A stretch of DNA of 64,000 nucleotides from Pyrinomonadaceae bacterium (GTDB lineage Bacteria; Acidobacteriota; Blastocatellia; Pyrinomonadales; Pyrinomonadaceae): NCBI GenBank assembly GCA_965218105.1, contig OZ244585.1:2960597-3024596 (forward strand), read 5' to 3'. Shown one piece after another: positions 26,101 through 63,134 of this stretch; position 1 is the stretch's first letter; each line of letters starts with the position of its first letter. The notes below the pieces were generated by a model, which had not been told where the DNA came from, made no database searches, and saw only the letters and a list, made by a program, of their open reading frames with translations. Position numbers and translations under genes: made by a program.

Positions 26101-27294
26101 TGCGACGCGTATCTTTTCTTGCGCTGATAATTCTCGTTTTTCAATATCCGCTAAGGCTTCGCTCATTTTTCGGCGGTAATCTTCATCAGCCCACAACGAC
26201 TTCATTCGTTCCGAAATATCTATCGCCAATTGTGGGTTTTCAGCGTGGCTTCGTTTTAATCCTTTGGAGACGCGCTTTCCGTTTTCCTGTCGAAACTTTT
26301 CATCTCTATTTTGTTCGACAAAGCGTTTTTTGCGTTCTTCTAAAACTTGCGGATTCTCAGCGTAATAATCCCGCACACCTTCTCTTTGTGCTTGACGAAA
26401 TTCTTCCGACTTCCAAAGTTCGCCGATTTGTTCGGCGTGAAGATGCAGATGTTCGAGAAAATCCATTCGTTCGATGTTCGTTGGGCGATTATCAAAACGA
26501 TTAAAGTTTTTATGATGACGAACAAGCGCGCCGTTGAAATTTTTTGCCAAACCTTTTTCTCGATTAAATTGGTCGGCTAAACAATGCACGAATTCGTAAC
26601 TTTCGGAGTTCGGCTGCCAAACTTGTAGATAATCATTCAAGCCCGGTTTAACCGGCGCGTTTTGAAAATAACCCGCCATCAAACTGTCTTCGACGGTTAA
26701 ATCTTCGGCTTGCTTATAAGTTCCACCGCGAAGCAAAAAACGATGGTCAGGCGTACAGCGAATTTTCGCCCCGTTATCTAAAACGACTTCAATAATTTCC
26801 GCTTTTCGTTTCGTAATTCGTGAATTTCGTCCTTCGCCAACGACAATTTTGCCGGTTTTATCAACCGAATAAACGTGAAAAATCTCGTTTTTCGGCAATT
26901 CGGCTAATTCGGCGAATGTCTTTTCCGTTCCGTCAAGCAATTTAATTTTCGTGTCGCCCGTAAAACAGCCGAAATTTCCTTGTCCGTCAACGAGCATATA
27001 ACGCATCGAAAATTCCTGCGCCATTCGGACAATTGTTTCGTAAACGGCAGTGTCGCCGTGCGGGTGATATTTTCCGATACAATCGCCGACGACACGCGCT
27101 GATTTTTTGTACGGGCGATTGTAATAATTGCCGAGTTCCTGCATCGCCCATAAAACGCGGCGATGAACGGGTTTTAGACCGTCGCGCACGTCGGGCAGGG
27201 CGCGTCCGATGATGACGCTCATTGCGTAATCGAGATACGATTTACGCATCTCGTCTTCGATGTTTACCTGATTGCGTTCTAATGCTGAATCCAT
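23164..27294 (-). CDS. gyrA: DNA gyrase subunit A, interrupted by a 520-aa intein
   Basis: 1376 aa. After removal of residues 110-629 the junction reads [25 protein letters not shown], the conserved GyrA active-site region. Confidence 0.95.
   Translation of the reverse strand: [1376 protein letters not shown]
25408..26967 (-). mobile_element. GyrA intein with an HNH-type homing-endonuclease domain
   Basis: Starts CFTGDTKI (block A), CTPDH (block B), ends [23 protein letters not shown] (blocks F/G). The interior has [25 protein letters not shown] (HNH) and about 6 repeats of W..(E/D)(E/D)(Y/F)R-type helices. Confidence 0.85.
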
Positions 27295-41681: not shown

Positions 41682-42209
41682 TTAGATTTGCCGTCCGAGT
41701 TCGGGAACGATGTAGAGCAGCCACCACAAAAGTATCTGAATCGCCAGAACGATAAAACTCAGAAAAAAGCTGACGAGAGCGAATTTGCGTCCGCCGAGTC
41801 GCGGATTACGCAAATAATTTAAATAGCCGAAACTGCTGACGATAAAAGTGAACGGCACGAATAAAATTCCCAGATACGGCACGAGCGAATAGACAAAACA
41901 CGCCCAAGCCATTTGCGAAAACGTATTTTCGTTGCGTTCAAACAGATTTTTGACTTCTTCGCTTTTGGAATTTTCGATTAAAAAAGACTGTCCCTGCAGC
42001 CGATAAGAAGCCCGCAAACTGTCGAGCGGCTGATAATCTTCTTTGAGAAGTTTTCCGCAAATCAAACAAAATTTTGCATTACCGCGCCGTTTTTCCGCGC
42101 CGCAGGCGGAGCAATTTTTTTCAACAGACAATGAAATTCGAGAAACGGGAAATTGTTCGCGCTCAAAATCGCGCTCCGAATTTTCCGTTTTTCGTTTTCC
42201 GTTTTCCAT
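41682..42209 (-). CDS. Zinc-ribbon membrane protein
   Basis: CSACG...CLICG ribbon followed by about 3 TM helices. Its start overlaps the NurA-like stop (TAATG). Confidence 0.55.
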   Translation of the reverse strand: MENGKRKTENSERDFEREQFPVSRISLSVEKNCSACGAEKRRGNAKFCLICGKLLKEDYQPLDSLRASYRLQGQSFLIENSKSEEVKNLFERNENTFSQMAWACFVYSLVPYLGILFVPFTFIVSSFGYLNYLRNPRLGGRKFALVSFFLSFIVLAIQILLWWLLYIVPELGRQI

Positions 42210-43420
42210 TATCTTCGTCGTCCTTTGCTCGCCGCTTTTCGCGCGACGCTGAAGTTTAGTTTTTCACGTCCGGCGAAGTCTTGTAAAGCTCCGAGAAAAA
42301 CTTCGCGGTCGCGCATCGTAATGACCGCCGTTTGATCGGCGGTTTCGAGCGCGTAAGGATAACCCAAACCGATGACGCATTCGGCGCGGACGACATCCAA
42401 AACTTCGTTTAAAAGTCCGGCTTCGTAAACCCACGTCGGAACGTCGAGCCGCGCCGGTGCGGAATCGGAAGTCGTTTGCAGATATGTAAACCCGACGATT
42501 GAACGATTCGTTTCCGCATCAATAAACGCGCTCAAACCGCGTCGTTTTGAATAACAAAAACAAGTTCGGTCGCCCCAATTTGTCAAAACCTGCTTAAAAT
42601 TTGTCGTCGCCGCGTGAAGAATTGTCGCGTCATAAAGCGTTCTGACGTTTGATAACGCGCTGTCGCCGAAATTGTCGAGCAAAGTCAGCAAATCACGCGC
42701 GTAACTGCGGTCAACGTAACCGACGAGCGGGACTTTCGCGGCGATTGAAATCCGCGCGAGTTCGACTAATTTATTGGTAAAGCTGACTTGCAGACTCGTC
42801 TGCGGATGCGGCGTTGACAATAAAAGCGTGCCGTCGTAAAAAGCCAGCGGCATTCGTTCGCCGCGTTCCTGCCAGCCTTTTTTCTTTTGCAAAAAATCTT
42901 CAACGCGATCAATTTCCGCTTCAAAGCGAAACTGTCCGACCTTCGTTTCGGGAATCACGGGTTCGTCCTGCGAAAGCAGTTTTTCGGGCGAAAGCACCGA
43001 GAATTTCGCGTTTTTTTCGTAAGACTGTTCTAAATTATGCGGATTTTCAAACCAGCCGATTTGAATCGCCGCGACCGGCAGCGAAGTTTCCTTTTCGGCG
43101 TAAAGCTGGCTTCCGTCCGCCGCGAAAGTCGTGCGGTTTTGCAGAATCTCGTTCGCCCACGCCCGCGCTTCTTCGTGATTACGCCATTTTTCTGTGAAAT
43201 TAAACGAAAAAGATTTCGTTTCGTTTAATTCATCGGACGGCAATGCGCCCGCGTCATCTCTATCCTGCAATTTCTCCCAAATTTCCGCGCTCGGCGTATC
43301 ACAGAGAGATTGCAGTTTTCCCAGATAATCCGTCAAATCGCCGAATTGCGTTTCGGTAAAACGCTGAAAATCGGCGCGCTGGTTGTGAAGTTCGGATGTT
43401 AAAAGTTCTCGAAAAAGCAT
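42209..43420 (-). CDS. NurA-like nuclease domain protein
   Basis: 403 aa. FAADGSQ, AFYDGTLL and GLGYPYALETADQTAV resemble NurA motifs (DGS, DGsL, GYPy.L..AH). Confidence 0.65.
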   Translation of the reverse strand: MLFRELLTSELHNQRADFQRFTETQFGDLTDYLGKLQSLCDTPSAEIWEKLQDRDDAGALPSDELNETKSFSFNFTEKWRNHEEARAWANEILQNRTTFAADGSQLYAEKETSLPVAAIQIGWFENPHNLEQSYEKNAKFSVLSPEKLLSQDEPVIPETKVGQFRFEAEIDRVEDFLQKKKGWQERGERMPLAFYDGTLLLSTPHPQTSLQVSFTNKLVELARISIAAKVPLVGYVDRSYARDLLTLLDNFGDSALSNVRTLYDATILHAATTNFKQVLTNWGDRTCFCYSKRRGLSAFIDAETNRSIVGFTYLQTTSDSAPARLDVPTWVYEAGLLNEVLDVVRAECVIGLGYPYALETADQTAVITMRDREVFLGALQDFAGREKLNFSVARKAASKGRRR

Positions 43421-43430
43421 TTTTTTTATT

Positions 43431-44105
43431 TTACAAAGTTAGTTCGGCATACCAGAAACTCGCCATCTCGCCCGACGGAAAAACCGGCGCGTGATTGTAG
43501 ATTTGAGCGATTTTGTAATTGACCGGATTTTCAAAAAGTTTGCCGTCAAAAACAAAAGTATGAAACTCGCCGTTTTCGCCGCAGGCATCTACGCCCTCCG
43601 GCAAATCTTTGACAAATTGCTCATCAAAAACGCGCCCGCAAAACTCTTTGGGAAGATATTTTTCATTGACGCAAATGACGACCGAACGAAAACCTTCGCG
43701 CCAGAATTCATTGACCAAACCCAGACGATTTTCGTTCCACAACGGCAATATCGCTTCAATTCCCGCCGCCGCGCAAACATTTTCTTCCCAATCGCGGTGC
43801 GCTTGCAAATCAATATCGCCGAAAATCGCCGCGTCGAAATTGTGCGCCTTCAACCGTTTCAATTCATCAACAAAAACCGTTTCGTAACTCTCCCACGACG
43901 CGTTCGGCGTAATTAATTCCAAATAGAGCGCGTCGGCTTGCGCCCGCATTACTTCCCGCGAAACCGAATGCGAACGGGAACGCAAACCCGTCTCGTCAAA
44001 CATCGTCAAAAGATGCGTCACTTCACAGCCGTTTTCAATGGCGCGGTTCAAAGCGAGACAAGAATCTTTGCCGCCGCTCCACGAACAAAATGCTTTTTGT
44101 TTCAT
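43431..44105 (-). CDS. PP-loop ATPase of the MJ0570/Dph6-like (ATP_bind_4) family
   Basis: CSWSGGKDSCLAL PP-loop. 224 aa. 10 bp upstream of the NurA-like gene. Confidence 0.78.
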   Translation of the reverse strand: MKQKAFCSWSGGKDSCLALNRAIENGCEVTHLLTMFDETGLRSRSHSVSREVMRAQADALYLELITPNASWESYETVFVDELKRLKAHNFDAAIFGDIDLQAHRDWEENVCAAAGIEAILPLWNENRLGLVNEFWREGFRSVVICVNEKYLPKEFCGRVFDEQFVKDLPEGVDACGENGEFHTFVFDGKLFENPVNYKIAQIYNHAPVFPSGEMASFWYAELTL

Positions 44106-44192
44106 TCAAATTCCCCGTGATTGTTCGCGCTCTGTAAGAAACCAAGACAAACTGCGCCAAATTTTCCAGATCAATTAAATTCGGGCTGCTGT

Positions 44193-44657
44193 CTATAAAT
44201 AATCGTTCGGATTTTCAACTGCCAAACCTTCGGCTTTTGCAGCATCGTTTGACTCATTGTCGGCGGAAACGAAAACTAACGCGCTTAAATTATCGGTCAA
44301 TCTTTTGCGGTTTGTCTCCAAAGCTGTTGCAAGTTGGATCGCATCATAACCGCGAAGCGCATAAGTTTCGGTCAATTTAACAGCTTCGTTGATAATCGAA
44401 TCAGTCACGTCAACTTTTCTAAAATTACTGCTGAAATTGCGGCGAAATCGTGAAACCGCTTTTTTCGCCTCCTGCCCGCTGATAACCAAACCTTTCTGTT
44501 TTCGGGAAAATGCGGCGCACACCTCCGCCTCAGTAATTTTTGAAGAATAAACGCGGCTTCCAGCCGAAGGGCGAAGCAATTTGATTATAAATTTCGTTCC
44601 CTTTTCGACGGAATACCTTTTGACCAGCGAACTGCTGTCGAAATACAGCGCGTTCAT
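44193..44657 (-). CDS. vapC: PIN-domain toxin VapC
   Basis: YFDSSSLVKRY, TEAEV, GYDAIQLA acidic PIN residues. Confidence 0.85.
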   Translation of the reverse strand: MNALYFDSSSLVKRYSVEKGTKFIIKLLRPSAGSRVYSSKITEAEVCAAFSRKQKGLVISGQEAKKAVSRFRRNFSSNFRKVDVTDSIINEAVKLTETYALRGYDAIQLATALETNRKRLTDNLSALVFVSADNESNDAAKAEGLAVENPNDYL

Positions 44658-44948
44658 TTACTGCCGCTCCCGAATAATCATTTCCGAAAGCGGCTCACCT
44701 TCAAACTTAACCGGCTCAAAATTGTCAAATTCTTCGTCCGTTTCGACACGCGTCGGAATACTGCCGATAAATCCTTCGGCAAAAAGTCTGCGTTCAAATT
44801 CATCTTCACGCGCTTCAATTTCGTCTTCTGAAAGTTCTTGAACAACCTCAATCTGTTCGACTTTTCCAGCAATTTCGACGAGCGTTTTCAAGTCTTCATT
44901 TGATATTATTACCTGATTTTCGCCGTAATTTCTTGTTTGTATGTTCAT
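44658..44948 (-). CDS. VapB-type antitoxin
   Basis: 96 aa, directly abutting the vapC start. C-terminal GEPLSEMIIRERQ tail is common in this antitoxin class. Confidence 0.6.
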   Translation of the reverse strand: MNIQTRNYGENQVIISNEDLKTLVEIAGKVEQIEVVQELSEDEIEAREDEFERRLFAEGFIGSIPTRVETDEEFDNFEPVKFEGEPLSEMIIRERQ

Positions 44949-44955
44949 ATTTTTC

Positions 44956-46284
44956 CTACTTTACGCGGCTCGTCCGGCGTTTCATAAAATCCATCAAAAC
45001 AAACTGCGTCAAGTTATTCGGATTGGCGAAATACGCTTTGCCGCGCGTCATCGCGGACATTTGTTTGACGAATTCGACGAGATAATAATCGCTCGCCAAC
45101 ATAAAAGTGTTTATCATAATGCCCGATTTGCGGCACGCCTGGACTTCCTTCATCGTTTCCGCCATTACGAACGGGTCGTTGCCCATCGAATTTTTGTAGA
45201 GCATTTTCTTTTCGCTTTTGACATCCCGCGAGTAGCGGCGGTGCGAGAGATAAGCGGCGTTGGACGGTTCGATGTAACACGCCGTCGGTTTGCCGTCCGT
45301 CACCATCACGATCTGCTTCATATCTTTGCGCTGCGCGTTTAAGATTCGGCGGGCTAATTTCAAACCTTCCGCCGTGTTCGTGTGATACGGTCCGACCTGC
45401 GTCGTCGCCAGTTTTGCCAGCGGCAATTCTTCCGCGCCGTCGTGAAACAGCACGATTTTTAATGAATCACCGGCGTATTGCGTCCGAATCAGATGCGCGA
45501 GCGCAAGCGCGACTTTTTTGGCGGGCGTGAAACGGTCTTCGCCGTACAGAATCATCGAATGCGAGCAGTCGAGCATCACGACGGTCGCGCACGACGATTG
45601 ATAATTCTGCTGATAAACGTGCAAATCTTTGTATTCCAAATTCAGCGGAACGCCCAAACCTTCGCGCGTAATCGCCGATAAAAGCGTCGAATTGACATCC
45701 AGATTGATCGTGTCGCCGAATTCATACTGTTTCGACGCTTGCGCGGCTTCGATTCCGGTGTCGAGATAATGCGTGTCGTGTCTGCCGATGGTGGATTTGC
45801 CCATCGAACCGAGCAGTTTTTGCAGAGTTTTGTAGCCGAGAAAATCCAAACCTTTTTCGGTTACTTCAAAACGAATGTCGCGCGGCTGCGCTTCGCCGAC
45901 TTCGCCCTGTCCCTGACCGTTTTGCCGCTGCTGCGACTGCGGTTTTTCGACTTCTTTTAAATTTAAATAACCTTCTTCGACCAATCTTTCAATCAATTGA
46001 TTAATTAATTCTTCCAGCAGCGAACCTTTAAATTTTCCGTCATTATCGCCGAGCATTTTTTCGACATCCTGCTCGTCTAAAATTCCCTGCTCCATCAACG
46101 CTTCGAGCAGTGCCTGACGCAGCGCGTCCATCGAATCGTCCATTTGATTACGCTGGCGCGTCCAGTAATAATCTTCGTTATAGCCGGAATCGAGCATCAT
46201 ATCCGACAGCGAATTCATCAGATCGCCGAGATTGATGTCCGACACATTAAAACCTTTGAATTTTGAATAGCGAATAAATTTCAT
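44956..46284 (-). CDS. VWA domain protein (CoxE-like)
   Basis: 442 aa. [15 protein letters not shown] in the C-terminal half. No MoxR ATPase partner in the window. Confidence 0.72.
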
Positions 46285-50005: not shown

Positions 50006-51157
50006 ATGAGCAAAAAAATTAGAAAATACAAAGAAAGAGGCATTCGAGCCGAATTTTCGGCGGTCAATAATTTAGGAGTCAGAGAATACGAAGCAAAGAC
50101 TTTTAACGAACATAATACTCAAAAACGTAACGAGCGTTCGGCAAACGACTGGTTAAATAAAACAGCTAAAATTTTTCAGGCGAAAGGCACATTGCAAAAT
50201 GAAGACCTAACTTTTGCCGCTTATGTCGAAATGAAGAAAAAAACTCATTTGAAGGAAGCCGTCATCAATAACGGGAAACGAGTTTCGGGCTTAAAAGGCT
50301 TTGACGCACACGGAATATACTATTTGAATCCGTTAGTCGAAAAATTCGGGAAAGCGAAAATTCGGCTTATTACGGCGCACGAAATTGACGTTTATCGAAA
50401 TGAGAGATTAGACGATAAGAAAGATTCGGGAAAAACCTATAAAGGCACAACACGAACGATTGCGACTGTGAACCGTGAATTATCACTATTGAGAAAAATC
50501 TTTAATCTTGCGTTACAAGACAGAGTAATAAATTTTACGCCGAAATTCTCAATTTCGATGGCAGATGAAAATTCACGGGAACGAATTTTAGACTATGCCG
50601 AACAAGCAAGGTTAATAGAAGCATTCGACTATCGCAACAAACAAGGCAGACAAACCGTGTTGCATCTCAAACCAGTTATTATTTTCTTACTAGACACGGC
50701 TTGCAGATTCGGCGAAATGAAAAAATTGGAATGGAGGGATGTCAATTTTGACACCGGCATTATTACGCTTAGGGCATCGAATACCAAAACAGCCAAAGAA
50801 CGCATTATACCGATGTCGGAGCGTGTAAAGAGTGAGTTAAATAAATTATACGAATCAAAAATAAATGAATCGGTCTTTAACATCACGGAAGCTAGACGCG
50901 GTTGGAAAACACTCTGCAAAGCCGCCGACATTACCGGATGCCGCATCCACGATTTACGTCATACGGCAATCACTAATTTTGTTCGTTCGGGAATGCGAAC
51001 GGAGATAGCAATGGCAATTTCAGGTCATACCGAACTGCGAACTTTTCGCCGCTATTTGAACTTTATGAAAGATGATTTTATAAATGCTTTTGAAAGTTTC
51101 CAAACTCATTACATCGCACAGCAAACGCCCGAAATTGTCAGTGTGGCTAACAACTAA
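50006..51157 (+). CDS. int: Tyrosine recombinase/integrase
   Basis: TACRFGE (Arg), HDLRHT (HxxR), GHT, RRY (Tyr). 383 aa. Confidence 0.92.
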   Translation: MSKKIRKYKERGIRAEFSAVNNLGVREYEAKTFNEHNTQKRNERSANDWLNKTAKIFQAKGTLQNEDLTFAAYVEMKKKTHLKEAVINNGKRVSGLKGFDAHGIYYLNPLVEKFGKAKIRLITAHEIDVYRNERLDDKKDSGKTYKGTTRTIATVNRELSLLRKIFNLALQDRVINFTPKFSISMADENSRERILDYAEQARLIEAFDYRNKQGRQTVLHLKPVIIFLLDTACRFGEMKKLEWRDVNFDTGIITLRASNTKTAKERIIPMSERVKSELNKLYESKINESVFNITEARRGWKTLCKAADITGCRIHDLRHTAITNFVRSGMRTEIAMAISGHTELRTFRRYLNFMKDDFINAFESFQTHYIAQQTPEIVSVANN

Positions 51158-51182
51158 TCGTTTCCAGAGGGAAAACGTAGGG

Positions 51183-51216
51183 AAAGCCGTCTAAAAGGCA
51201 AAATGGACGGCTTTTA
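51183..51216 (+). terminator. Stem-loop terminator after int
   Basis: aaagccgtc ... gacggcttt followed by T. Confidence 0.6.
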
Positions 51217-51325
51217 ATAAGAGTTTTAATAACAGTTTTTGAAAATCTTTCACGCACCTATTTAATGCAAAGTAGCATCTGAAAAAACTTTTTATCAAAA
51301 CGACTATTACAAATAAAGTAACAAC

Positions 51326-51547
51326 TTGTCAGAGGCAAAACCAATTATGTTTGATGATACTGGAATCGTAGAATACGAAATCGAAAGGGAAAAGTGGAAC
51401 GACCAACCCGAAACGAACTTTGATGCAATTCAAACAAAGTCAGGTTACGGCGGATGCGGATGTTTGAGTTTGAAGGCTTTTTTATTATTTTTTGCCGGAA
51501 TGATGCTTTTCCGTCTGTTCGGCGACGTGCTAAAATTTATTTTTTAG
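51326..51547 (+). CDS. Small protein with a C-terminal TM helix
   Basis: 73-aa ORF (possibly starting at the internal ATG). Hydrophobic tail LKAFLLFFAGMMLFRLF. Confidence 0.4.
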   Translation: MSEAKPIMFDDTGIVEYEIEREKWNDQPETNFDAIQTKSGYGGCGCLSLKAFLLFFAGMMLFRLFGDVLKFIF

Positions 51548-51627
51548 CAATATTGTTTGTATCTGACATTGGAATTTTTTATTGTAAATTTAAGTATTAA
51601 ATATTAGCTTCAACCCAAGATAAAGTT

Positions 51628-52833
51628 ATGGATAAACTCTCATTTTCTCTACCAAAATATGATTTTGCTTTTAACAATTTTTATAACGATTTATACGATG
51701 ACCTACATTTACAAGATGAACTTTTGAGAAGATTTCCGCCTAAGTTAATGGCTCATTCTGGAACAACCAGATGGCTTAGTAAGCCCGATGTTTTAGAAGC
51801 CCCTTATAGACAACATAAGAATACTACAAGCGGTGAAATTGAAATTATTACTAAAACCGATGCCCTTAAATTTAAGGAGTTTTTACAGAATTTGATAATT
51901 CCTATAAGAGATAAGGTTAAAGAACACACAATAGAAAATATTAACCAAACCTGTGAGATGACGGGAAATAAAGTAGATGCCGTAAATCAAAATGTTTGGG
52001 ATGCTTATATCGAAGCCATTGAAAAAATGAAAATGGTTTTCGATGAAGATGGCAATCCGAATTTTTTGATTCATCCGCCGGAGTTTTACGAAAAACTTTC
52101 AAAAACCGACCCAACAGTTGACCAGAGAAATAAAATTGGAAAAATCTTTGGGAGAAAGAGAGAAGAATATATTTTAAGAAAAGGTTCTCGAAAATTAACC
52201 AAATCAAATCGCAAATCCAGACAAGTAGTTTCTGAATTAAATGTTGATGTTAGTTCCCTTAAATTTAATTTATCTTTACCTCAATATGAATTGGCAATAA
52301 CTCAACTACTTAGAGATGTAAATAATGGATATGAACAATTAGATCCTATTTTAAGTCAAGTCCAGAAAGTCCCCGTAGCTCACGATGGCTTTACTCGTCA
52401 GGTGAGCGAACCTACTATTCTTGAAACCCCAATGAAAGATTATTTAGTAGATACTTCAATAAAGTTAGATTGTTTCCGTAATACAGATACCGAATATTTT
52501 CGGGATTTTCTTTGGAAAATGCTAGAAGAAATTAATGGTGAAGTAAAAAAGCATATATTTGAGACGATTTCTCAGACTTGCGATGCTACTGGAAATAGTG
52601 TTGACGCAGAAGGAAAAAACTTTTGGGATTCCTACAATGAAATGTTAGAAACTGCTGATATGCGTTTTGATGAAAACGGAAACCATAATTATAAAATTTA
52701 TATCCACCCCGACAGGCGCAAAGATATTGAGGCTAATCCACCATCAGAAAAACAATTAACAAAAAGTAAAGAAATTATCGAAAGGAAGAAGCAAACTTAT
52801 TATGCTCAGAAACGCACTCGAAGATTATCTTAA
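51628..52833 (+). CDS. Unknown protein made of two homologous halves of about 190 aa (cargo gene A)
   Basis: 401 aa. Residues 4-190 and 210-400 align, for example INQTCEMTGNKVDA/ISQTCDATGNSVDA. No family recognised. Confidence 0.7.
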   Translation: MDKLSFSLPKYDFAFNNFYNDLYDDLHLQDELLRRFPPKLMAHSGTTRWLSKPDVLEAPYRQHKNTTSGEIEIITKTDALKFKEFLQNLIIPIRDKVKEHTIENINQTCEMTGNKVDAVNQNVWDAYIEAIEKMKMVFDEDGNPNFLIHPPEFYEKLSKTDPTVDQRNKIGKIFGRKREEYILRKGSRKLTKSNRKSRQVVSELNVDVSSLKFNLSLPQYELAITQLLRDVNNGYEQLDPILSQVQKVPVAHDGFTRQVSEPTILETPMKDYLVDTSIKLDCFRNTDTEYFRDFLWKMLEEINGEVKKHIFETISQTCDATGNSVDAEGKNFWDSYNEMLETADMRFDENGNHNYKIYIHPDRRKDIEANPPSEKQLTKSKEIIERKKQTYYAQKRTRRLS

Positions 52834-54415
52834 CTCAATAATTGAAAGAGATTTCGATTATCCACTTACTTCGCTTTTACAAGCTAAGGGATTTTACGAC
52901 ATTCATTTTACTCACGGTAGAAATGAAATTGGAAAGGACTTTATAGCAAAAAAACTCGAAAATGGAATTGAATATCAGTATGCAATTCAATCTAAAAGGG
53001 GAAATATAGGTCAGCCAGACCTTGACAAAATACAAGGTCAATTACTATTAGCCTCAATTTCTGGATTGTCCCATCCGCAATTTAATAAAAGTCTGGAACG
53101 CCGAGTTATATTAGTAACAACTGGAAGGCTTATTGGGAATGCTCCAATAATTCTTCAAGATTTTAATGATGTATTAGAAAATGAATATCAAAAAAATGGA
53201 ATTGAATTTTGGGGACAGGAGCGACTTATTCAAGATGCAGACGAATTTGGTTTTTCGGGCATACATCAAAATACTGCCAGAGAATTAAAAGGAATCAGTC
53301 AGTTTTACCTAACATACAGCAAAGCTATTGAGGGTAATTTATCCGACAGAGAAATTGAAGAATTTTCACAGCTTTGGTTAGATGAAAAATTAGATTATAA
53401 GAAAAGAATTTTTAGAGCATCAATAGAAGCAGAAATCATTGCGTCTAAACTTATTGAAGGTGAACAACTCTATGAAGCAATGATAACGTATTTAAGTCTT
53501 GCTAGAGTTGTAATGCAAGTAACTTACGAAACCGATGATAATTTTGTTATTGAAATTTATAAAGAAATTCTAAATGAGAAAATCCTTACATTTTGTAGAA
53601 AATTCATCAATCAAATAAAAACAGAATGGGAACAGGTTGGGCGTTCATTATTACACCTCTGTTTAAGACATAGTTCTTTTCCTATGCTTCATTATATTAT
53701 TTGGTGTGTGAGGGTATCTGAAATAGCTTCTCTAAACTATTTTCTAACTCAAGATGAATCCGAAAAAAATGAGGTTATAGAATTTATAAAGAGTTTTAGT
53801 GAAACGGAAGAAGGTTTCGGGCATCTTCCAAGTGATAGATATGCAGTTTCTTTGGTTTGGATAATACTTGCTTTACTGCAATCTGATAAGCGAGAAGAAG
53901 CAATTGAAATAGTAAGGGAAAGCGCAATATGGCTTTTTGACCGTGTTGAAAATGGGTTTGGATTAGCTCGTTATGAAGCAGACGAACAAACAGAAACTAA
54001 CACTTTACTCGGTTATCCTTTTGACTTTGTAAATGTTCAAAAAAATACAAGTTCTTTCCTTGCTACAATTCTTGCTGACCTCGCCGCTTTTATTGGCGAC
54101 AAAGAATTTTACAGCGATATTATAAATGATATTCAGGCTTGTGAAATTTCATACAACTATTGGCAATTTCCAGATACAAGAGCAATTTTCACAATTTTGA
54201 CGGAAGAGTGTAGAAACTTTTCAAATATTCCACATCAAGATTCAATAAACAATTTCGATGATTTTGAATATGCCTCACATTTAAAAGATGAGCCAAAATC
54301 ATTTCAAATTACTGATAAAGTAGGAAACGAAAGTCTGATTTTGTTATCTGTCTTACTCAAAGATAGATATTTTCCTACAATGTGGAAACAAATAATTTCA
54401 AGCAAAAGAATTTAA
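52802..54415 (+). CDS. Mrr-cat-like PD-(D/E)xK nuclease domain fused to an unknown helical domain of about 380 aa (cargo gene B)
   Basis: FDYPLTSLLQAKGF..GRNEIGKDFIAKK..YAIQSKRGNIG..VILVTTGRL matches the Mrr catalytic-domain pattern. Overlaps gene A by 32 nt. Confidence 0.72.
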   Translation: MLRNALEDYLNSIIERDFDYPLTSLLQAKGFYDIHFTHGRNEIGKDFIAKKLENGIEYQYAIQSKRGNIGQPDLDKIQGQLLLASISGLSHPQFNKSLERRVILVTTGRLIGNAPIILQDFNDVLENEYQKNGIEFWGQERLIQDADEFGFSGIHQNTARELKGISQFYLTYSKAIEGNLSDREIEEFSQLWLDEKLDYKKRIFRASIEAEIIASKLIEGEQLYEAMITYLSLARVVMQVTYETDDNFVIEIYKEILNEKILTFCRKFINQIKTEWEQVGRSLLHLCLRHSSFPMLHYIIWCVRVSEIASLNYFLTQDESEKNEVIEFIKSFSETEEGFGHLPSDRYAVSLVWIILALLQSDKREEAIEIVRESAIWLFDRVENGFGLARYEADEQTETNTLLGYPFDFVNVQKNTSSFLATILADLAAFIGDKEFYSDIINDIQACEISYNYWQFPDTRAIFTILTEECRNFSNIPHQDSINNFDDFEYASHLKDEPKSFQITDKVGNESLILLSVLLKDRYFPTMWKQIISSKRI

Positions 54416-54665
54416 TTTTGTTAAATTTATTGGATTACATTCTATATTGCTCTCTCATATCTCTATAACTCTGCTCATCCATTCCTGATTTGAGTTCTGG
54501 AAACTTGTTTGTTTCATAGAATTGGTTTTCACCCATTTTGCAAATACTTGAGTATTCATTACCTTTAATATCTTTATAAGAGGCTGCAATCATTTCCCCT
54601 TTTATCATAAACGGTAATTCGACTATTCCATTGGAGGCAATAGGATAAAAAGAAATTTGAGTTCC

Positions 54666-54917
54666 CTACTTATCATCTGAATCTTTGAGGGAAAATATAA
54701 TTGACATTGCAACGCCTTGACCGACGTTTTTAATTTGCCACGTTTCTGTTCTTATCCGAGAGAAAACTAACACAGGCATAATACTGGCTTTCTGCGTTTT
54801 GTAAAAAGAATAATACGAAAAGCCGAATGCAAAAAGAGACACAATCAAAGACAAAAGTGCAATTGATAATTCCATAATCAAACTTAATATGGAGTTAATT
54901 ATATTGGAAATCATCAA
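54666..54917 (-). CDS. Small 2-TM membrane protein
   Basis: 83 aa with two hydrophobic helices. The same frame reopens immediately after its TAG stop. Confidence 0.5.
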   Translation of the reverse strand: MMISNIINSILSLIMELSIALLSLIVSLFAFGFSYYSFYKTQKASIMPVLVFSRIRTETWQIKNVGQGVAMSIIFSLKDSDDK

Positions 54918-55203
54918 CTTTGTCGAGATTCTGACAAAGCCGTTTCACCGGCATTTACTATTTCTATCAGAAGAGATTTTATATGTAAATGGTTTTTCAA
55001 TTGAGAGTTTCAAGAATTTTTAGGTCTTCATTATTAAAGACAGTAACGATTTTAAGATTTTCATAATTTAATTTTGTTTTTACGAATTTAACGAACTTAT
55101 TGTAAAGTATTTAATAACAATTCAGAAACGGTTTTTATAAACTTAGTAACTCAATCTGAGCGATTACGAATGAAGTATTCGTAAAACATAATAAAGTAAA
55201 AAA

Positions 55204-57435
55204 ATGGACAAATTATTTTCAGACTTTGATTTTTCATCACTCGATTCACCCGATTTCAAAGAAGATTCGGTTCGAGAAGATTTGATAATGCCGATTCTTA
55301 AAGAACTCGGTTATTCATCACAGAGCGAAAATAAAATAATTCGTAGTAAATCTGTTCGGCATAAATTAGTTCAAACAGGTTCGGGCAAACACAAATTAAA
55401 TAGTATTCCAGATTATTTATTAGAAGTCGGCGGAAAATACGTTTGGGTATTGGACGCAAAAGCACCGAACGAAGACATAAAGACCGGAAAGAATGTTGAA
55501 CAAACTTATTTTTATGCGATACATTCGGAAATTCGAGTAGAGTTTTATGCTGTTTGCAATGGTAGGGAATTTATTCTTTTTCACATTAGCCAACCCGAAG
55601 CCGTTCTTTATTTTTCACTTCCTGAAATCGAAAAACACTGGCACGAATTAGAAAAACATCTTTCGCCGAGTGCTTTTGATAAGTCGCAAAATAAATTTGA
55701 AAGAACCAATGCAGAAATTGAATTTGACTACCTTTCTAAAAATGTTCTGAATGAAATTAAAAGTATTAAAAAACAATCTTCAAAAAGACATTTCGGAGTT
55801 CACGGTTATTTTACAAAACAGGCATTTCAAATTCTTCAAAAATATATTGAAAATTTCACGAAGCCAAACGATTTAGTTCTCGACCCATTCGGCGGAACGG
55901 GTGTAACACTAATTGAATCTTTGATACTTGGAAGAAGGGCAATTCATATTGACTTAAATCCTTTATCAGTATTTTGGGTAAGAACTTTGATTGAGCCTGT
56001 AAATTTTGAAAGCATCTTTAATGAATTTGACAGAATAAAAAATGAGTTCAACTCGAATAAACCGACAACTAAAATTGCTATTGAAAGATTTCTTGAAAAA
56101 TATCCGTTTCCAAGCGGAATAAAACTTCCGAAAACATCAGATGTTGACACAATAGAGAAATTGTTTAGTAGAATTCAGTTATCACACTTGGCATATCTCA
56201 AGCACTTGATTTTACAAGTTAAGGATAAAAAAGTTAGAAACCAATTATTACTTGCGTTTTCCAGTTCTCTTAATAAATTTAATTTAACTTTTCATTATAC
56301 AAAATCAGACGGTGGCGGCGATTCTGCTGTGTTTCGTTACTATCGTTATCGAATTGCGCCAAGTCCGGGCATTTTGGATTTAATGAATATCTTTGAAACA
56401 AAACTAAAGAGGCTGATTTCGGCAAAAAAAGAAATCTTACCTTTAATAAACACAAAAACAATTCAGAACTCACAAATTGAAAAAGGCACAGCAACGAACC
56501 TAGATAAAATAGAAAATGAATCCGTAGATTATATTTATACAGACCCACCCTATGGAAAGAAAATTCAATATCTCGACCTTTCGATTATGTGGAATTCTTG
56601 GCTTGATTTTGAAGTTTCCGAAGCAGATTACGAATTAGAAGCTATTGAAGGCGGCGAACACAAAAAGACAAAAAATGACTATTCAAATTTAATTGCCGAA
56701 TCAATTAAAGAAATGTATAGAGTTTTGAAATTTGACCGTTGGATGTCGTTTGTTTTTCAACATCAAGACCCTGCATACTGGCATTTAATTGTAGATACGG
56801 CGGAAAAAGTCGGTTTTGAATATGCGGGAGCAGTCAAACAAAACAACGGGCAATCAAGTTTCAAGAAAAGACAGAATCCTTTCACAGTTCTTTCCGGTCA
56901 ACTAATTATCAACTTCAAAAAAGTTCGTAACCCAAAATCAATTATGAAAGCAGATTTAGGGGCAGACATCACCGATTTAATTACTCAGTCAATCGAAGGT
57001 ATAATTGCTAAAAACAACGGCGCAACGGTTGATGATATTAACAATGAATTGATTATTAGAGGCTTAGAACTTGGCTTCTTAGATGTTTTGAGTAAAAATT
57101 ATGCAGATATTACACCATTTTTATTAGCTAACTTTGATTATCACGAAGACACACAAACCTATCACCTAAAGAAAAATACAAAATTTAAGGCACATATCCC
57201 GGTTGAAGTGAGAATAAAATATTATGTTGTTTCGATGATGCGGAGACTAGCAAGACAAAATGAATATCCGAGTTTTGATGATATAATTTTAGAAATTATG
57301 CCGCTTTTGCGTAATGGTATAACACCCGAACATCAAACAATTCTCACAGTTTTAGAAGACATTGCAATTCAAGTCGGCGGCGACCAATGGAAATTAAAAG
57401 AATCAGGTCAGGGAAATTTATTTGACTTAGTATAA
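55204..57435 (+). CDS. HsdR_N-type PD-DxK nuclease fold fused to a DNA (N6-A/N4-C) methyltransferase (cargo gene C)
   Basis: IPDYLLEV..VWVLDAKAP (residues 68-88), LVLDPFGGTGVT (AdoMet motif I, residues 224-235), IYTDPPYG (motif IV, residues 445-451). 743 aa. Confidence 0.82.
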   Translation: MDKLFSDFDFSSLDSPDFKEDSVREDLIMPILKELGYSSQSENKIIRSKSVRHKLVQTGSGKHKLNSIPDYLLEVGGKYVWVLDAKAPNEDIKTGKNVEQTYFYAIHSEIRVEFYAVCNGREFILFHISQPEAVLYFSLPEIEKHWHELEKHLSPSAFDKSQNKFERTNAEIEFDYLSKNVLNEIKSIKKQSSKRHFGVHGYFTKQAFQILQKYIENFTKPNDLVLDPFGGTGVTLIESLILGRRAIHIDLNPLSVFWVRTLIEPVNFESIFNEFDRIKNEFNSNKPTTKIAIERFLEKYPFPSGIKLPKTSDVDTIEKLFSRIQLSHLAYLKHLILQVKDKKVRNQLLLAFSSSLNKFNLTFHYTKSDGGGDSAVFRYYRYRIAPSPGILDLMNIFETKLKRLISAKKEILPLINTKTIQNSQIEKGTATNLDKIENESVDYIYTDPPYGKKIQYLDLSIMWNSWLDFEVSEADYELEAIEGGEHKKTKNDYSNLIAESIKEMYRVLKFDRWMSFVFQHQDPAYWHLIVDTAEKVGFEYAGAVKQNNGQSSFKKRQNPFTVLSGQLIINFKKVRNPKSIMKADLGADITDLITQSIEGIIAKNNGATVDDINNELIIRGLELGFLDVLSKNYADITPFLLANFDYHEDTQTYHLKKNTKFKAHIPVEVRIKYYVVSMMRRLARQNEYPSFDDIILEIMPLLRNGITPEHQTILTVLEDIAIQVGGDQWKLKESGQGNLFDLV

Positions 57436-57585
57436 AATCTTGAAAGTATAAATTTACTAGAGGTTTCGTGATATTGGAGCTTTTAACTTTGTCGGATTAG
57501 ATGAAAATTTTTGGCTTTGTGTCTAAAGTCGATTTTGAAACGGACTTTTGAGATTGGTTAAGCAAGTTTTGAAAAAAACAAAAAT

Positions 57586-57643
57586 AAATGGAGGGGCAAC
57601 TGCCCTCCATTTAAATAAACGGAGGGCAGTTGCCCCTCCATTT
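57586..57643. terminator. Nested-palindrome bidirectional terminator
   Basis: aaatggaggggcaactgccctccattt aaat aaacggagggcagttgcccctccattt. Each arm is itself near-palindromic. Confidence 0.7.
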
Positions 57644-57783
57644 ATAGGTTAAGTTGCTAACTATATTAACCCGTTCGGTTTTCTGTGAAATCTCTTGACA
57701 AACAAAAAGCAAACAATTAACATCTAAGTATTGTCCGAAGATGTTATTTCTAACATCTTCGGGATTACCGTGAAGTTATTTAT

Positions 57784-57942
57784 CTAAGGATTTTTATCAA
57801 AAAACTTGTTAAGGTTGTCTAGAGCCATAGCAAGTTTTTTTTCTTGATGCTTCTTTTTAGAAAAGTGAATTACTTCAAACACCAAGAAAGTGAATCCAAA
57901 TCCGTAGTAAACGAAAGCGGCAATGATATGGATATATTCCAT
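57784..57942 (-). CDS. Small membrane protein (52 aa), not in the ORF track
   Basis: My own translation is MEYIHIIAAFVYYGFGFTFLVFEVIHFSKKKHQEKKLAMALDNLNKFFDKNP. GGAGGT lies 8 nt upstream of the ATG. Confidence 0.45.
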   Translation of the reverse strand: MEYIHIIAAFVYYGFGFTFLVFEVIHFSKKKHQEKKLAMALDNLNKFFDKNP

Positions 57943-58260
57943 TATTTTACCTCCGCATTTAGTGCGATTTGTAGCTCACAGAACAACGGGACAATCCCAT
58001 TGCCCCGAACATTCATTATATTAAATGAAATTTTTAAGATGTGCAAAATAAGAGGTAATTATAAATAAAAACAGTGCATTGAAATGTTTGCTAACCTTTC
58101 GGCAGATGCTTTTTCCTAAAACCTTTAGATTTCACTCAATAAAATTACTTCAAAACTAAATTATGAAAACTTCAATTCTTAAAATACTTTTCGTGTGTTT
58201 ATTTGTGTCTAGTGCAAGTTACGGACAAAAATCTTTGTATTCAAATTATTCCATTACAGT

Positions 58261-58533
58261 TCAATAATCCGATAATCCTTTTACCATTCGGCTTGTCGGT
58301 AAATCCGACAATTTATCCGGCAAATTAGATAGTAAGTCATCTATTAAATTTGGAGATTCAAAATTATTAACAGCCTCGCAAAACAGGCAGGCGAAGCGGC
58401 AAAAATTAAATATAGCTACGTTATTTATTATTAAAATCTGCGAATCAAGACAAACTTTTCCCAAAAATTTATGGCATTTTTTGCACTTGAAATTGTAATC
58501 CCGAAATCGTAAAGGTTTGTCGTAATTGTCCAT
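58261..58533 (-). CDS. Small zinc-ribbon protein
   Basis: KCKKCHKF ... CLFCEAV cysteine pairs. 90 aa. Confidence 0.5.
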   Translation of the reverse strand: MDNYDKPLRFRDYNFKCKKCHKFLGKVCLDSQILIINNVAIFNFCRFACLFCEAVNNFESPNLIDDLLSNLPDKLSDLPTSRMVKGLSDY

Positions 58534-58876
58534 ACAAAATTTTTGAGCCTGTAAATCTCACGCAGATAGAGAGTTAAGCTATATTTTTTAGTAGTTTATA
58601 AACTCTTAATACCAATATAAGCAGTAAGTGAAAATATAGCTTAAATTAGTGTGTGTAAAGGTTTTATCCGTTCATTTTTGATGTCGGTAGTTTGGTATAT
58701 CAGAATTTGGTATATCCGTATTTCACCGGAAAAAATTTTTTTTGGTGGAGTTTTCAGCCACCCTTTTATCAGGAGCGTGATTTTTGTTGCGGACACAGAC
58801 ACAGGCATATACCAGAATAAATAAGCCCTACCCTTTGTAAAATGATGACGGCATCGAAAAAACAGTCTTTCCAAAA

Positions 58877-59245
58877 TCAGTAATTTTTTTGGAGTTGTTT
58901 TTCAAACTCTAATTTGCGCTGTGCATTTCGTTTCGTTGTGGCATTTTTGACTTGTATTTGAGGCACAAGGGTTTTTTCAAGTTCAGCCCTTATCACCAAT
59001 CGTTTTATTTCTGCCAAGCTACGCTCCACCGCAAAATTTTCATCTAAATCTGGAATGCCGGTAGAGTCTTCGATGTAACCAGAATCTGAAAAACTCGCAA
59101 ATTTCGATTGAGATTCAAATTTTCGCTTCAATTCTGCTAATCTGCGTTTGCGCTCCGAATCGTCAATACTCGAATTTAAGTAATCGAAGTGAGATTTTTG
59201 CGAAAGATATTTTGCTAATTCAATTTTATTCATCATTTGTAACAC
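58877..59245 (-). CDS. Coiled-coil hypothetical protein
   Basis: 122 aa, charged heptad-like sequence. Overlaps the upstream ORF by 20 nt. Confidence 0.5.
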   Translation of the reverse strand: MLQMMNKIELAKYLSQKSHFDYLNSSIDDSERKRRLAELKRKFESQSKFASFSDSGYIEDSTGIPDLDENFAVERSLAEIKRLVIRAELEKTLVPQIQVKNATTKRNAQRKLEFEKQLQKNY

Positions 59246-59621
59246 CCGTTAATTTATTGAGTTTTGCCGTCAAGATTTTCAAATCTTTTCGGTCTTGAGA
59301 AACGCCTTGTTCAAAAAAAGAAAGTTCAAGATTTGCTTGATTAAGTTGTCTTTGCGCCGCTTCAATTTGAGGTTCGATAATCCGCACGGCATCTATTTTA
59401 CCTTTTATCGTTTGCAATAATTGTTCACGCTTTTCACCCGAATTCGATTGACGGTTTTTTATTTCGGCAATTTCACGCTCTAAAGTTTGAACTTCGCTAC
59501 TACTCTGATTTTTGAGTAAACTTTCACGCTCCAAAATCAGTTTTTCGTATTTATCACGATTTTCAGATGTTTTGAAAATCGAAGATATTTGTTTATCTAA
59601 TTCTGTAATATCTGTATTCAT
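59226..59621 (-). CDS. Coiled-coil hypothetical protein
   Basis: 131 aa, Glu/Lys/Gln-rich heptads. Confidence 0.5.
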   Translation of the reverse strand: MNTDITELDKQISSIFKTSENRDKYEKLILERESLLKNQSSSEVQTLEREIAEIKNRQSNSGEKREQLLQTIKGKIDAVRIIEPQIEAAQRQLNQANLELSFFEQGVSQDRKDLKILTAKLNKLTGVTNDE

Positions 59622-59638
59622 AATTTTTTATTTTCAGA

Positions 59639-59983
59639 TTATCCGAATCTGTTTTTACCTCGTATTCCGTCGAATTTTGAACCGATAAAAATATCACGCT
59701 GTTTTTCTATTTCGGCAATTTGAGAGCGAAGGTTACGAACATCATTTTCAGCTAAGTATTTTAATGCTGTCCAACCGGCGTGTAATTTTGTCATTTCTAC
59801 AAATTCAATTGTCATTTCATCAATTTCAACAGCTAAAGAATCCATAGATTTTTTATGTGTTTGGGCAAGTTCGAGTTTGTTTTCAATCTCTAACTCTAAT
59901 CCCATAATCATTCGCTGAAATGCCAATTTCTTTTCTCCAAAACTATTGGCTTCGACTTCTTGACGCTCCGATTCGTTTTCCAT
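59639..59983 (-). CDS. Coiled-coil hypothetical protein
   Basis: 114 aa, helical. Confidence 0.5.
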   Translation of the reverse strand: MENESERQEVEANSFGEKKLAFQRMIMGLELEIENKLELAQTHKKSMDSLAVEIDEMTIEFVEMTKLHAGWTALKYLAENDVRNLRSQIAEIEKQRDIFIGSKFDGIRGKNRFG

Positions 59984-60199
59984 TTTTGATTTGCTCCATT
60001 TATTAAAATTTGGACGGAGCGAATAGTTGAAATAAACGCTCCGAGTCCGGCAAAGCCAACTGAATAAGAAGAATTATATTTGTTCAATTGGTTAATTAGA
60101 ATGTAGCATTTTGGGCAGTAGAAGTCAAGATAAATTGTGCAAACAAAGGAGTTAGTATATCAGGATAAATAATACATCGTAGTTTTGAGTAAGTCGTTA

Positions 60200-61171
60200 T
60201 TAATTCAAACCAATACAAGTTTGCTCCAAAATCAAATAGTCTGCCAAATCAAAGCCGTCGGTTAGTTCTTTACTGGTTGCGTTGTCTTTAATCAGTTTTG
60301 AGATAGTTACATCAAATCCATTCTTACGAGCCGTTTTAGTTACTTCATTCCATTCGTCAAAACCGTCTGCGTCCGGGTAAAGAATTATTTTCTTTTCACG
60401 TCCGAGCCTATTGAGTTTTTCCGGCTTCAAATTCTGTTTTGCGCCGATAGAGAGCCAAATGTATTCGGGAAAACAAATTGAGGCAATGACGGCTGTTTTT
60501 TCAGCTTCGACAATACAGATATTTTTATTTGAATTATTACGAATTAGATGTTCGCCAAAAAAGCATTGCTTCAAATTAAAATCGTTTCTAACTTTTTTGT
60601 ATTTTTTGAGTTCGGTGTGTATCCAATTCGGTTCTATTGATTTGATACGTTTTCCGGTCTGCGAATCATAGGCAATTATTTTTCCCGTGCGGATTCGCAT
60701 ATTTTTATCAATTTGCCAGAAACAAGTTTTGCCGTCCGGTGTAGTGCCTATAAAATAATCTTTGACAGCGATTTGAATTTCATCAAGAAAATTCGGGAAA
60801 AGATTTATCAGAAATTGCACAAATGAGTTTTGTTCATAATTTTGCAGAGAATCGAATAAATATTTGTTTTCAATAAAGTCGCATCTTTTCCGCAAAATTT
60901 GAGCTTCATATTTTGTCTGTGAGCCGTTTTTGTTATTAAAGTAAGGGTTTAATATTCGTTTGTTTTTAGCTTCGACACGGGCTTGCGGATTATTGGCAAA
61001 ATACATTTTCGGCTTAAAATGATAGCCGCATTTGCTTTCTCTGTCGCACCGTCCGACATCATCAGATACATAGTCGCCTGTATTGTTATCCACATACCGC
61101 ACAAAAGTTTTTTGTGAACAATCCGGGCAAATATATTTTCTTGAGCCTTTTTCTAATGGAAATCTATACAT
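60200..61171 (-). CDS. Zinc-finger/Toprim DNA primase-like protein
   Basis: CPDCSQ...CDRESKCGYH zinc finger. CIVEAEKTAV (Toprim Glu) and LYPDADGFDEW (DxD). GGAG upstream of the ATG. Confidence 0.78.
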   Translation of the reverse strand: MYRFPLEKGSRKYICPDCSQKTFVRYVDNNTGDYVSDDVGRCDRESKCGYHFKPKMYFANNPQARVEAKNKRILNPYFNNKNGSQTKYEAQILRKRCDFIENKYLFDSLQNYEQNSFVQFLINLFPNFLDEIQIAVKDYFIGTTPDGKTCFWQIDKNMRIRTGKIIAYDSQTGKRIKSIEPNWIHTELKKYKKVRNDFNLKQCFFGEHLIRNNSNKNICIVEAEKTAVIASICFPEYIWLSIGAKQNLKPEKLNRLGREKKIILYPDADGFDEWNEVTKTARKNGFDVTISKLIKDNATSKELTDGFDLADYLILEQTCIGLN

Positions 61172-61185
61172 TTTTCTTTCTCCGA

Positions 61186-61343
61186 GTGTTCACGGTGTTC
61201 ACGCCTATCGTGAACGTGAACACTATGTTTTTTATTTAATCAATACATTAAATTTTGATATTTCATATATTTACAAAGATTGCGAATTTATGTTCACAGT
61301 GTTCACGTTCACGGCAAGTGTGAACACCGTGAACACCGTGAAC
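61186..61343. promoter_or_regulatory. Iteron-like GTGTTCAC/GTGAACAC clusters flanking a 67-bp AT-rich spacer (candidate ori and/or operator)
   Basis: Cluster 1 at 61186-61223 (2 forward plus 2 reverse copies). AT-rich spacer at 61224-61290. Cluster 2 at 61291-61343 (3 forward plus 3 reverse copies), mostly at 9-bp spacing. Confidence 0.65.
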
Positions 61344-61345
61344 GC

Positions 61346-62930: not shown

Positions 62931-63134
62931 TTATTTATCGGCGTTTGAGAGTTTTTTTGGTCTGCCGACCTTGCCATAAACTTTTACTTTTTCCGCATCC
63001 GTTCGCTTAATCATATTCACACGCCCGAATTTTGTAGCCGGAATAATGCCGTCAATTATCATTGTTCTAACCCGTCCATCTGACAAGTTAAGAAGTTTTG
63101 CCGTTTCTTGTGTTGTTAAAAGTTTTTTATCCAT
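62931..63134 (-). CDS. xis: Excisionase-family (MerR-like) HTH protein
   Basis: LLTTQETAKLLNLSDGRVRTMIIDGIIPATKFGR. Start at the internal ATG. Confidence 0.68.
   Translation of the reverse strand: MDKKLLTTQETAKLLNLSDGRVRTMIIDGIIPATKFGRVNMIKRTDAEKVKVYGKVGRPKKLSNADK

Follow-up and report, generated by a model that had tools for sequence, protein, structure and literature searches.

We analyzed a 64,000-nucleotide stretch of genomic DNA from a Pyrinomonadaceae bacterium (phylum Acidobacteriota), hereafter the window, in which a predicted nuclease gene, nurA, lies between a PP-loop ATPase gene and a gene for a Zn-ribbon membrane protein (ZnTM). A preliminary description made from the sequence alone had read these three genes as the operon of a new system, in which a NurA-like nuclease without its usual partner, the HerA translocase, is coupled to an adenylating enzyme and a membrane anchor. 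The analysis reported here points instead to nurA as a probable part of a DNA-end processing machine whose other genes lie elsewhere in the same genome. The three genes are:

43431-44105, minus strand: PP-loop gene of the PF01902 family, 224 aa, from the list of open reading frames (ORFs), carrying CSWSGGKDS
42209-43420, minus strand: nurA, 403 aa, predicted NurA nuclease with an RNase H/PIWI-like fold, from PF09376 and a fold match
41682-42209, minus strand: ZnTM, putative Zn-ribbon membrane gene, 175 aa, with four cysteines, a conserved motif and two hydrophobic stretches

The genes are co-directional and tightly packed, as first described. Read directly, the junctions consist of the PP-loop stop codon TAA, 10 nt (aataaaaaaa) and the nurA ATG, and of a nurA TAA that lends its last A to the ZnTM ATG to give a TAATG overlap. 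Promoter-like and terminator-like sites between 41300 and 46900 were not above shuffled expectation.

Members of the NurA family have Mn-dependent 5'-3' exo/endonuclease activity and form a toroidal dimer. The 403-aa protein matches the Pfam family PF09376 (NurA) at 1.7e-25 with 90.4 bits (cut-off 21) and covers profile positions 2-254 of 254. Searches of the solved structures with the single sequence matched no NurA chain, and a profile of 48 relatives also returned none, its sole matches being at chance level (E 0.12 or worse), so a search by fold was needed. An AlphaFold2 (AF2) model of the protein, built on the 48 relatives, has a pLDDT of 94.6 and aligns with Sulfolobus NurA (2ygk_A) at a VIA Z of 20.1 over 285 residues (root-mean-square deviation 3.6) and with Thermococcus kodakarensis NurA from the HerA-NurA complex at Z 19.3. 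The top ten fold matches are NurA-family chains throughout, from Z 20.1 down to 12.2; after the Sulfolobus and T. kodakarensis proteins the ranking continues with Pyrococcus furiosus NurA, TdpB, TM1739 and Deinococcus radiodurans NurA, and then with Argonautes (Z about 10-11). By family profile and predicted fold, then, the protein is a genuine NurA, and the NurA-like assignment of the preliminary description holds: the profile search gave NurA and not another family.

The putative active site is also in place. A 2026 review (PMC13748450) gives the NurA motifs as I (..DG), II (..DG) and III (LxxAHxxxA/V). Residues D102, G103, E169 and D196 are invariant across the 48 relatives, and the predicted catalytic residues are D102 (motif I, AADGS), E169, D196 (motif II, FYDG) and D362 (motif III, LETAD). 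Motif III reads LETADQTAV, and the aspartate that the preliminary description had singled out where AH is usual is real. It is not unusual, since position 362 is D in 36 of the 48 relatives and H in the other 12. This makes D362 a family variant, and judging from the alignment the substitution is a normal alternation and no lesion. Structure prediction bears out the NurA fold, and the alignment fits the predicted catalytic residues.

The locus had been called HerA-less. This is true of the window as scanned, where no HerA- or FtsK-type gene was present among 53 ORFs of at least 90 aa (four more of that size lay outside the scan), but not of the genome, which carries a HerA gene at 2755714-2757408 of contig C1, 245 kb from nurA (DUF87, 4e-41; HerA_C, 1.7e-5). 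By sequence, its closest solved relatives are T. kodakarensis HerA from the HerA-NurA complex (2.5e-48) and Sulfolobus HerA (1e-34), and both of these archaeal proteins outrank the defence-type HerAs among its solved-structure matches. We then examined occurrence across the phylum in one set of 401 genomes. The NurA query is found in 10 of the 401, including 6 of the 27 sampled genomes of its own family. An orthologue of HerA (62-100% identity) is present in 15: all 10 NurA-bearing genomes and 5 of the 391 others. The five HerA-bearing genomes without NurA belong to one genus, and PF09376 was not found in them; a further 16 genomes of the phylum gave merely weak partial HerA-like matches. Thus no sampled genome carries this NurA without this HerA. 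We regard this count as suggestive and attach no statistical test to it, because the genomes are relatives.

The region just downstream of herA in the source genome has features of its own. Two extra copies of the last ~45 herA codons, 79-83% identical and one of them with a TGA, lie at C1:2749454-2749594 and 2754852-2754977. They bracket VapBC-like, nucleotidyltransferase-like and unidentified genes (C1:2749420-2755675), and the region looks like the product of serial insertions into the herA 3' end, each rebuilding the end of the reading frame.

Distant relatives of the window NurA provide a second line of evidence. We collected 80 metagenome loci seeded from NurA proteins that are 33-41% identical to that of the window; a metagenome search with one distant NurA protein alone had returned no loci. 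By source name, the subfamily extends to a Chloroflexi bacterium and a Promethearchaeota archaeon. In these loci Rad50 is encoded directly upstream of nurA in 44 of 80 and Mre11 in 25 of 80, and Pfam searches on a subset returned Metallophos (Mre11) and SMC_N with Rad50_zn_hook. Directly downstream of nurA, 33 of 80 carry a gene that we call A. HerA follows A in 30 loci by one set of queries and in 29 with queries from the source genome, and the order nurA-A-herA is seen in 20 of the 41 loci that have at least 2.6 kb downstream. Adjacency of nurA and herA, or a shared operon, is seen in 29 of 80 metagenome loci, and neither in the source genome nor in 80 loci of near relatives (described below). 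In the subset searched with Pfam, herA is followed by a GHMP kinase gene in 5 loci and by a PF01902 gene in 3, the latter probably from one organism. The GHMP kinase gene directly follows herA in L174, L176, L181, L183 and L184 (5 of the 30 HerA loci), and a homologue 37% identical is encoded in the source genome at C1:2388132-2389148.

Protein A lies between nurA and herA in 29 of the 80 metagenome loci (for instance L156:8184-8774 and L183:8189-8773) and is encoded in the source genome at C1:400935-401528. It is strongly conserved and matches no Pfam or NCBIfam family. In the 25 best VIA matches of its AF2 model (pLDDT 87.5), the matched part is always the N-terminal region (~150 residues) of a HerA-family ATPase, TdpA among them, at Z 12.3-9.5; the N-terminal barrels of F1-ATPase come next, at Z 8-9. 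Because the best fold matches are N-terminal regions of HerA-family ATPases, protein A is, on its predicted structure, a stand-alone copy of the HerA N-terminal HAS-barrel. Its occurrence is equally informative: A is present in 15 of 15 HerA-bearing genomes, including the five without NurA, and whole-genome searches did not find it in any of 10 members of the same family that lack HerA. It is likewise missing from three further HerA-lacking genomes at the site where ZnTM and another neighbor, B, are retained. A thus goes with HerA and not with NurA, which argues that it is a subunit or regulator of HerA. This pattern of occurrence goes beyond routine annotation. Among the titles and abstracts listed from the HerA/NurA literature, none describes a stand-alone HAS-barrel partner or a link to PF01902, which does not prove that the literature contains none.

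To locate the parts of the distant operon in the source genome, we searched contig C1 by tblastn with the operon proteins of one metagenome locus. The matches are:

C1:1086351-1087577: Mre11-like, 36% identity
C1:2311339-2313999: Rad50-like, 29-32% identity over the full length
C1:2755771-2757408: HerA, 47% identity
C1:400935-401501: A, 37% identity
C1:3002808-3004016: NurA, 38% identity

Distances of 0.25 to 2.6 Mb separate nurA, A and herA in the source genome, and the Mre11-like and Rad50-like genes, neighbors in the related metagenome operons, lie 1.2 Mb from each other. Comparison of gene orders suggests that the operon broke up in Pyrinomonadaceae, leaving each part at a separate site on C1, and such dispersal is in line with published statements. 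We consider it probable that nurA encodes the nuclease of an archaeal-type DNA-end processing machine (Mre11, Rad50, NurA, A and HerA) whose operon has been broken up, and that its present neighbors are mostly passengers.

This proposal starts from the families, fold, residues, gene orders and co-occurrence set out above; from these we infer the physical complex, its activity and its biological role by homology, as follows. By analogy with the solved complexes of Sulfolobus, Thermococcus and Deinococcus, the HAS-barrel face of the HerA hexamer would be the docking site for a dimer of NurA. Duplex DNA pumped by HerA would enter the two active sites of NurA (D102, E169, D196, D362) and be digested there, and protein A may serve HerA as an adaptor, cap or regulator. 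The outcome would be resection that prepares DNA for recombination or, alternatively, the destruction of foreign linear DNA.

The window gene can be compared with several known systems. It shares with archaeal HerA-NurA (Sulfolobus solfataricus 2YGK/4D2I, T. kodakarensis 9X1L-9X1P, P. furiosus 3TAI, and the mre11-rad50-herA-nurA clusters) the predicted NurA fold over residues 1-400, the DG motifs I and II and motif III; archaeal HerAs are the closest solved relatives of the genome HerA; and relatives of the window NurA likewise occur in mre11-rad50-nurA-...-herA operons. It differs in that it is bacterial, its genes are dispersed, motif III has D for H, an extra stand-alone HAS-barrel gene accompanies herA, and NurA itself has no sequence-level match to solved NurA chains. 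The NurA-HerA systems of D. radiodurans (7F6D, 7WRW/7WRX) and Thermus thermophilus also combine a bacterial NurA with a HerA-type motor. The fold similarity to D. radiodurans NurA is lower (Z 12.2 to 7f6d_G), and D. radiodurans HerA is not among the sequence matches of the genome HerA at E up to 0.001. According to the same review, characterisation has so far reached only two NurA proteins from bacteria, and bacterial NurA DG motifs are degenerate (PMC13748450); in contrast, both DG motifs are intact in the window NurA. TdpAB (TdpA with TdpB, 8WFD) shares the NurA-like fold (Z 14.8) and works with a HerA-like ring. It is a weaker match than NurA proper, and TdpA is the weakest sequence match of HerA (5.4e-4). 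Relative to the nurA-A-herA operon of its distant relatives, the module of the source genome has been taken apart, and within the family ZnTM stands between nurA and A. The window gene adds a well-preserved bacterial member to the known NurA/HerA machinery, and a HerA-less three-part novel system is unsupported. An archaeal-type, fully intact NurA/HerA set in a soil Acidobacteriota offers a usable new model. A dismantled operon can make a locus pass for a new "orphan nuclease" system, and genome-wide and cross-genome searches restore the known machine.

Several observations weigh against this reading. First, neither A nor HerA lies within 7 kb in 21 of the 41 metagenome loci that could be assessed. 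Second, the link between NurA and a distant HerA draws on co-occurrence among related, non-independent genomes. Third, five genomes keep HerA and A without NurA; HerA therefore has a NurA-independent life, and NurA could be independent of HerA as well. Fourth, the Mre11 and Rad50 matches in the source genome (36% and 29-32%) may be ordinary SbcCD. The remaining two points concern the view of the neighbors as passengers. An overlap of 1 or 4 nt between ZnTM and the nurA stop codon, seen in 18 of the 52 loci where it could be measured, suggests co-translation and is left unexplained if ZnTM is a passenger. The PP-loop genes adjacent to nurA and those adjacent to herA share one subfamily, something not expected of mere passengers.

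An alternative keeps the same parts and assigns them another role: NurA and HerA would form an accessory system that destroys incoming linear phage or plasmid DNA and would stand apart from core recombination repair. The patchy distribution of nurA (10 of the 401 genomes, 6 of the 27 in its family), its absence from five genomes that keep HerA, and its position at the border of a slot rich in toxin-antitoxin modules all speak for this role. So does the published view: bacterial NurA-HerA is said in the review to degrade mainly foreign double-stranded DNA, and the same suggestion is cited there for T. kodakarensis (PMC13748450). On the other side, the genes of distant relatives share an operon with Mre11 and Rad50, which is a repair arrangement. 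The HerA of metagenome locus L156 scores best against the NCBIfam models "DNA double-strand break repair helicase HerA", above the anti-phage HerA models, with all scores below cut-off. A search of PADLOC-DB v2 at E of at most 0.01 gave no family for any of six proteins of the locus (PP-loop, NurA, ZnTM, and the PIN, 96-aa and VWA proteins described below), and no modification or sensor gene was identified, although no search was aimed at DNA-modification genes. We hold an accessory defence role to be possible but on balance unlikely.

What stands next to nurA bears directly on the remaining alternatives. Upstream of the PP-loop gene, the window carries three further genes:

44193-44657, minus strand: PIN-domain gene, candidate VapC-like toxin (PF01850, 7.7e-10)
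44658-44948, minus strand: 96-aa ORF abutting the PIN gene, antitoxin candidate by position alone, without a family match
44956-46284, minus strand: VWA-domain gene, 442 aa (PF13519, 3.5e-08), conserved upstream border of a variable slot

The VWA gene is where the preliminary description had placed it, on the same strand. Of its vapBC pair, the toxin half has family evidence in the PIN domain; the presumed antitoxin has none, with zero matches in Pfam, NCBIfam or PADLOC. We compared this neighborhood with 80 near-relative loci from species-representative genomes (Pyrinomonadaceae, Blastocatellia, Acidobacteriota or similar) whose NurA is 44-96% identical to that of the window; five of these have less than 700 bp upstream of nurA and are not fully judgeable. 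The neighbors are:

ZnTM, directly downstream of nurA: 67 of 80 loci
Protein A (about 195-197 aa), next downstream: 70 of 80
Protein B (~200 aa, secreted-looking), after A: 65 of 80
VWA, upstream of nurA: 53 of 80
MoxR-like AAA+ gene, upstream of nurA: 23 of 80
PolB_exo2-type exonuclease, upstream of nurA: 15 of 80
PP-loop gene, upstream of nurA within 1 kb: 11 of 80
VapB-like (homologue of the 96-aa ORF) and PIN homologue in the slot: 6 of 80 and 2 of 80
HerA within 8 kb of nurA: 0 of 80

In the 50 loci with both ends, VWA and nurA are separated by 10 to 4135 bp. The slot between them houses, besides the PolB_exo2 exonuclease or the PP-loop gene, MazF, ParE, BrnT/BrnA and Fic, nucleotidyltransferases, DinB, DsrE, an APH kinase, peptidases of the M1, M23 and M48 families and DUF4440/SnoaL proteins, which recur. 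For the MoxR-like AAA gene and several of the slot ORFs, Pfam and NCBIfam returned either no family or sub-threshold AAA matches. Because the gap varies in both length and content, the PP-loop gene and the vapBC-like pair are best seen as occupants of a variable slot, and gene order suggests that they are passengers and not parts of the machine. In the window the slot includes 44106-44955, and the equivalent slot was read in L034-L113.

The VWA gene itself was also considered as a partner. VWA-nurA gaps of 10-51 bp in 9 of 50 loci raised the idea of a MoxR/VWA-NurA system, which was set aside because VWA stays near ZnTM in two genomes where NurA was not found (L131, L134) and is absent from the distant operons. 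The usual neighbor of the VWA gene, a gene for a ~490-aa MoxR-like AAA+ protein, lies at C1:2361317-2362786 (tblastn), 640 kb away, a second split pair at this locus.

The PP-loop protein was described as a Dph6-type ATPase. It does belong to PF01902 (9.4e-42, domain over residues 5-205), and resembles Dph6/MJ0570 and other PP-loop ATP pyrophosphatases of that family in this domain and in the SGGKDS motif. It scores 96.9 bits against the Dph6 equivalog TIGR03679, whose cut-off is 197.3, and is far below the NCBIfam cut-offs for Dph6, PAB0415 and TTX_0299, in which it differs from Dph6. By these profiles it is a PF01902 family member and not a Dph6 equivalog. Bacteria are not known to have the diphthamide target.

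Could this protein be a facultative accessory of the Mre11-Rad50-NurA-HAS-barrel-HerA machine, one that adenylates a protein or nucleic-acid substrate linked to DNA-end processing, its adjacency being functional? The gene runs in the same direction as nurA, and in 8 of 11 loci its reading frame stops 2 to 37 nt short of nurA (10 nt in the window). In a FastTree phylogeny, the 12 nurA-adjacent copies, window included, form one clade with local support of 97. This clade and L123 fall in a group with support of 99 together with a clade of L115 and the herA-adjacent genes of a distant lineage (L156, L157, L162); 11 other acidobacterial PP-loop genes lie outside it. If such an association were true, the subfamily would be a recurrent but optional accessory, placed ahead of nurA in some Pyrinomonadaceae and behind herA in an unrelated lineage, and the enzyme would add ATP-dependent adenylation or amidation to DNA-end processing or to self/non-self marking. 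Against this stands the rarity of the arrangement, which is found in just 11 of 80 nurA loci and requires at least 7 gains or losses on the NurA tree for 10 occurrences among 68 rows, a pattern suggesting that the adjacency is often lost or gained. The 3 loci with a herA-adjacent copy appear to come from a single organism; L115 and L123 have no NurA or HerA genes within 1.5 kb; the slot beside nurA also houses many unrelated genes; and the tree has flagged long branches. Across the phylum, PP-loop family genes occur in 99 of the 401 genomes and in 4 of the 10 that bear NurA, in three of those four on another contig, and the gene was not found in G171, G181 and G211, which carry both NurA and HerA. 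PP-loop occurrence is independent of NurA. As an operon partner the gene does not stand, and the shared clade and its grouping with herA-adjacent genes are what is left of the original idea; we read the association as a weak hint of a facultative link, and a functional one strikes us as doubtful.

ZnTM directly follows nurA in most of the near-relative loci, and in most of the family nurA-ZnTM-A still stand together. Four cysteines (C33, C36, C48, C51) and P61, D63 and R66 are invariant in 29 homologues (alignment A3), and a conserved motif, EDYQPLDxLRASYRLQG, precedes the membrane segments. The zinc-ribbon label given to this protein fits the cysteines, although the Pfam match reaches 17 bits under a family cut-off of 27. 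Three transmembrane helices had been described; a 19-residue Kyte-Doolittle plot shows two hydrophobic stretches with centres near 109-122 and 147-163, the first of which could be one or two helices. In the family, the ZnTM profile has good matches in 12 genomes, and NurA was not found in 7 of these. We examined four ZnTM loci without NurA in detail: three read PolB_exo2-ZnTM-A-B, and A was not detected in the fourth. Outside one bacterial family, genes other than ZnTM come after nurA. ZnTM thus appears not to be tied to NurA but to be a family-specific gene wedged between nurA and A.

These findings leave little room for the model first proposed, a HerA-free stress or defence nuclease tethered to the membrane by ZnTM. 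The TAATG overlap, ZnTM after nurA in 67 of 80 loci, the strong conservation of the cytoplasmic motif and the vapBC-like pair next door fit it, but every sampled NurA-bearing genome has a HerA orthologue, 7 genomes in which NurA was not found retain ZnTM, nurA occurs without ZnTM outside one family and is directly followed by A and herA in distant relatives, and the six locus proteins gave zero PADLOC matches, so that we judge it highly improbable. A complex prediction for NurA and the cytoplasmic residues 28-100 of ZnTM scored 0.00, run without controls, and weighs neither way. Nor do the three genes form a nuclease, adenylating-enzyme and membrane-anchor system: HerA is present, the PP-loop gene is in 11 of 80 loci, and ZnTM persists in 7 genomes in which no NurA was found. 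The full trio of PP-loop, NurA and ZnTM occurs in only 9 of 80 loci, all Pyrinomonadaceae-like, and the three genes thus largely do not co-occur.

Protein B shows a further pattern at this site. Its homologues are encoded at C1:401495-402130 in the source genome and at L013:6209-6811, have a signal-like hydrophobic segment at the N-terminus and match no Pfam or NCBIfam family; B stays with ZnTM even where A, NurA and HerA are missing. In the window and its closest relatives (L034-L036, L068), bshB1 and an MBL-fold gene come next after nurA-ZnTM, and A-B are found at another place.

Lastly, the window contains several features away from the nurA locus. A 1376-aa GyrA is encoded at 23164-27294 on the minus strand; an intein splicing domain (PF14890, 1.5e-21) falls between its residues 118 and 629. 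Two Uma2-family putative restriction endonucleases and a zeta-toxin-like kinase (879-1427, minus strand; 16381-17109, plus strand; 13862-14437, minus strand) stand amid housekeeping genes. The end of the window, 50006-64000, is a block of low GC content (0.32-0.37, against about 0.47), with a tyrosine integrase gene at its start (50006-51157).

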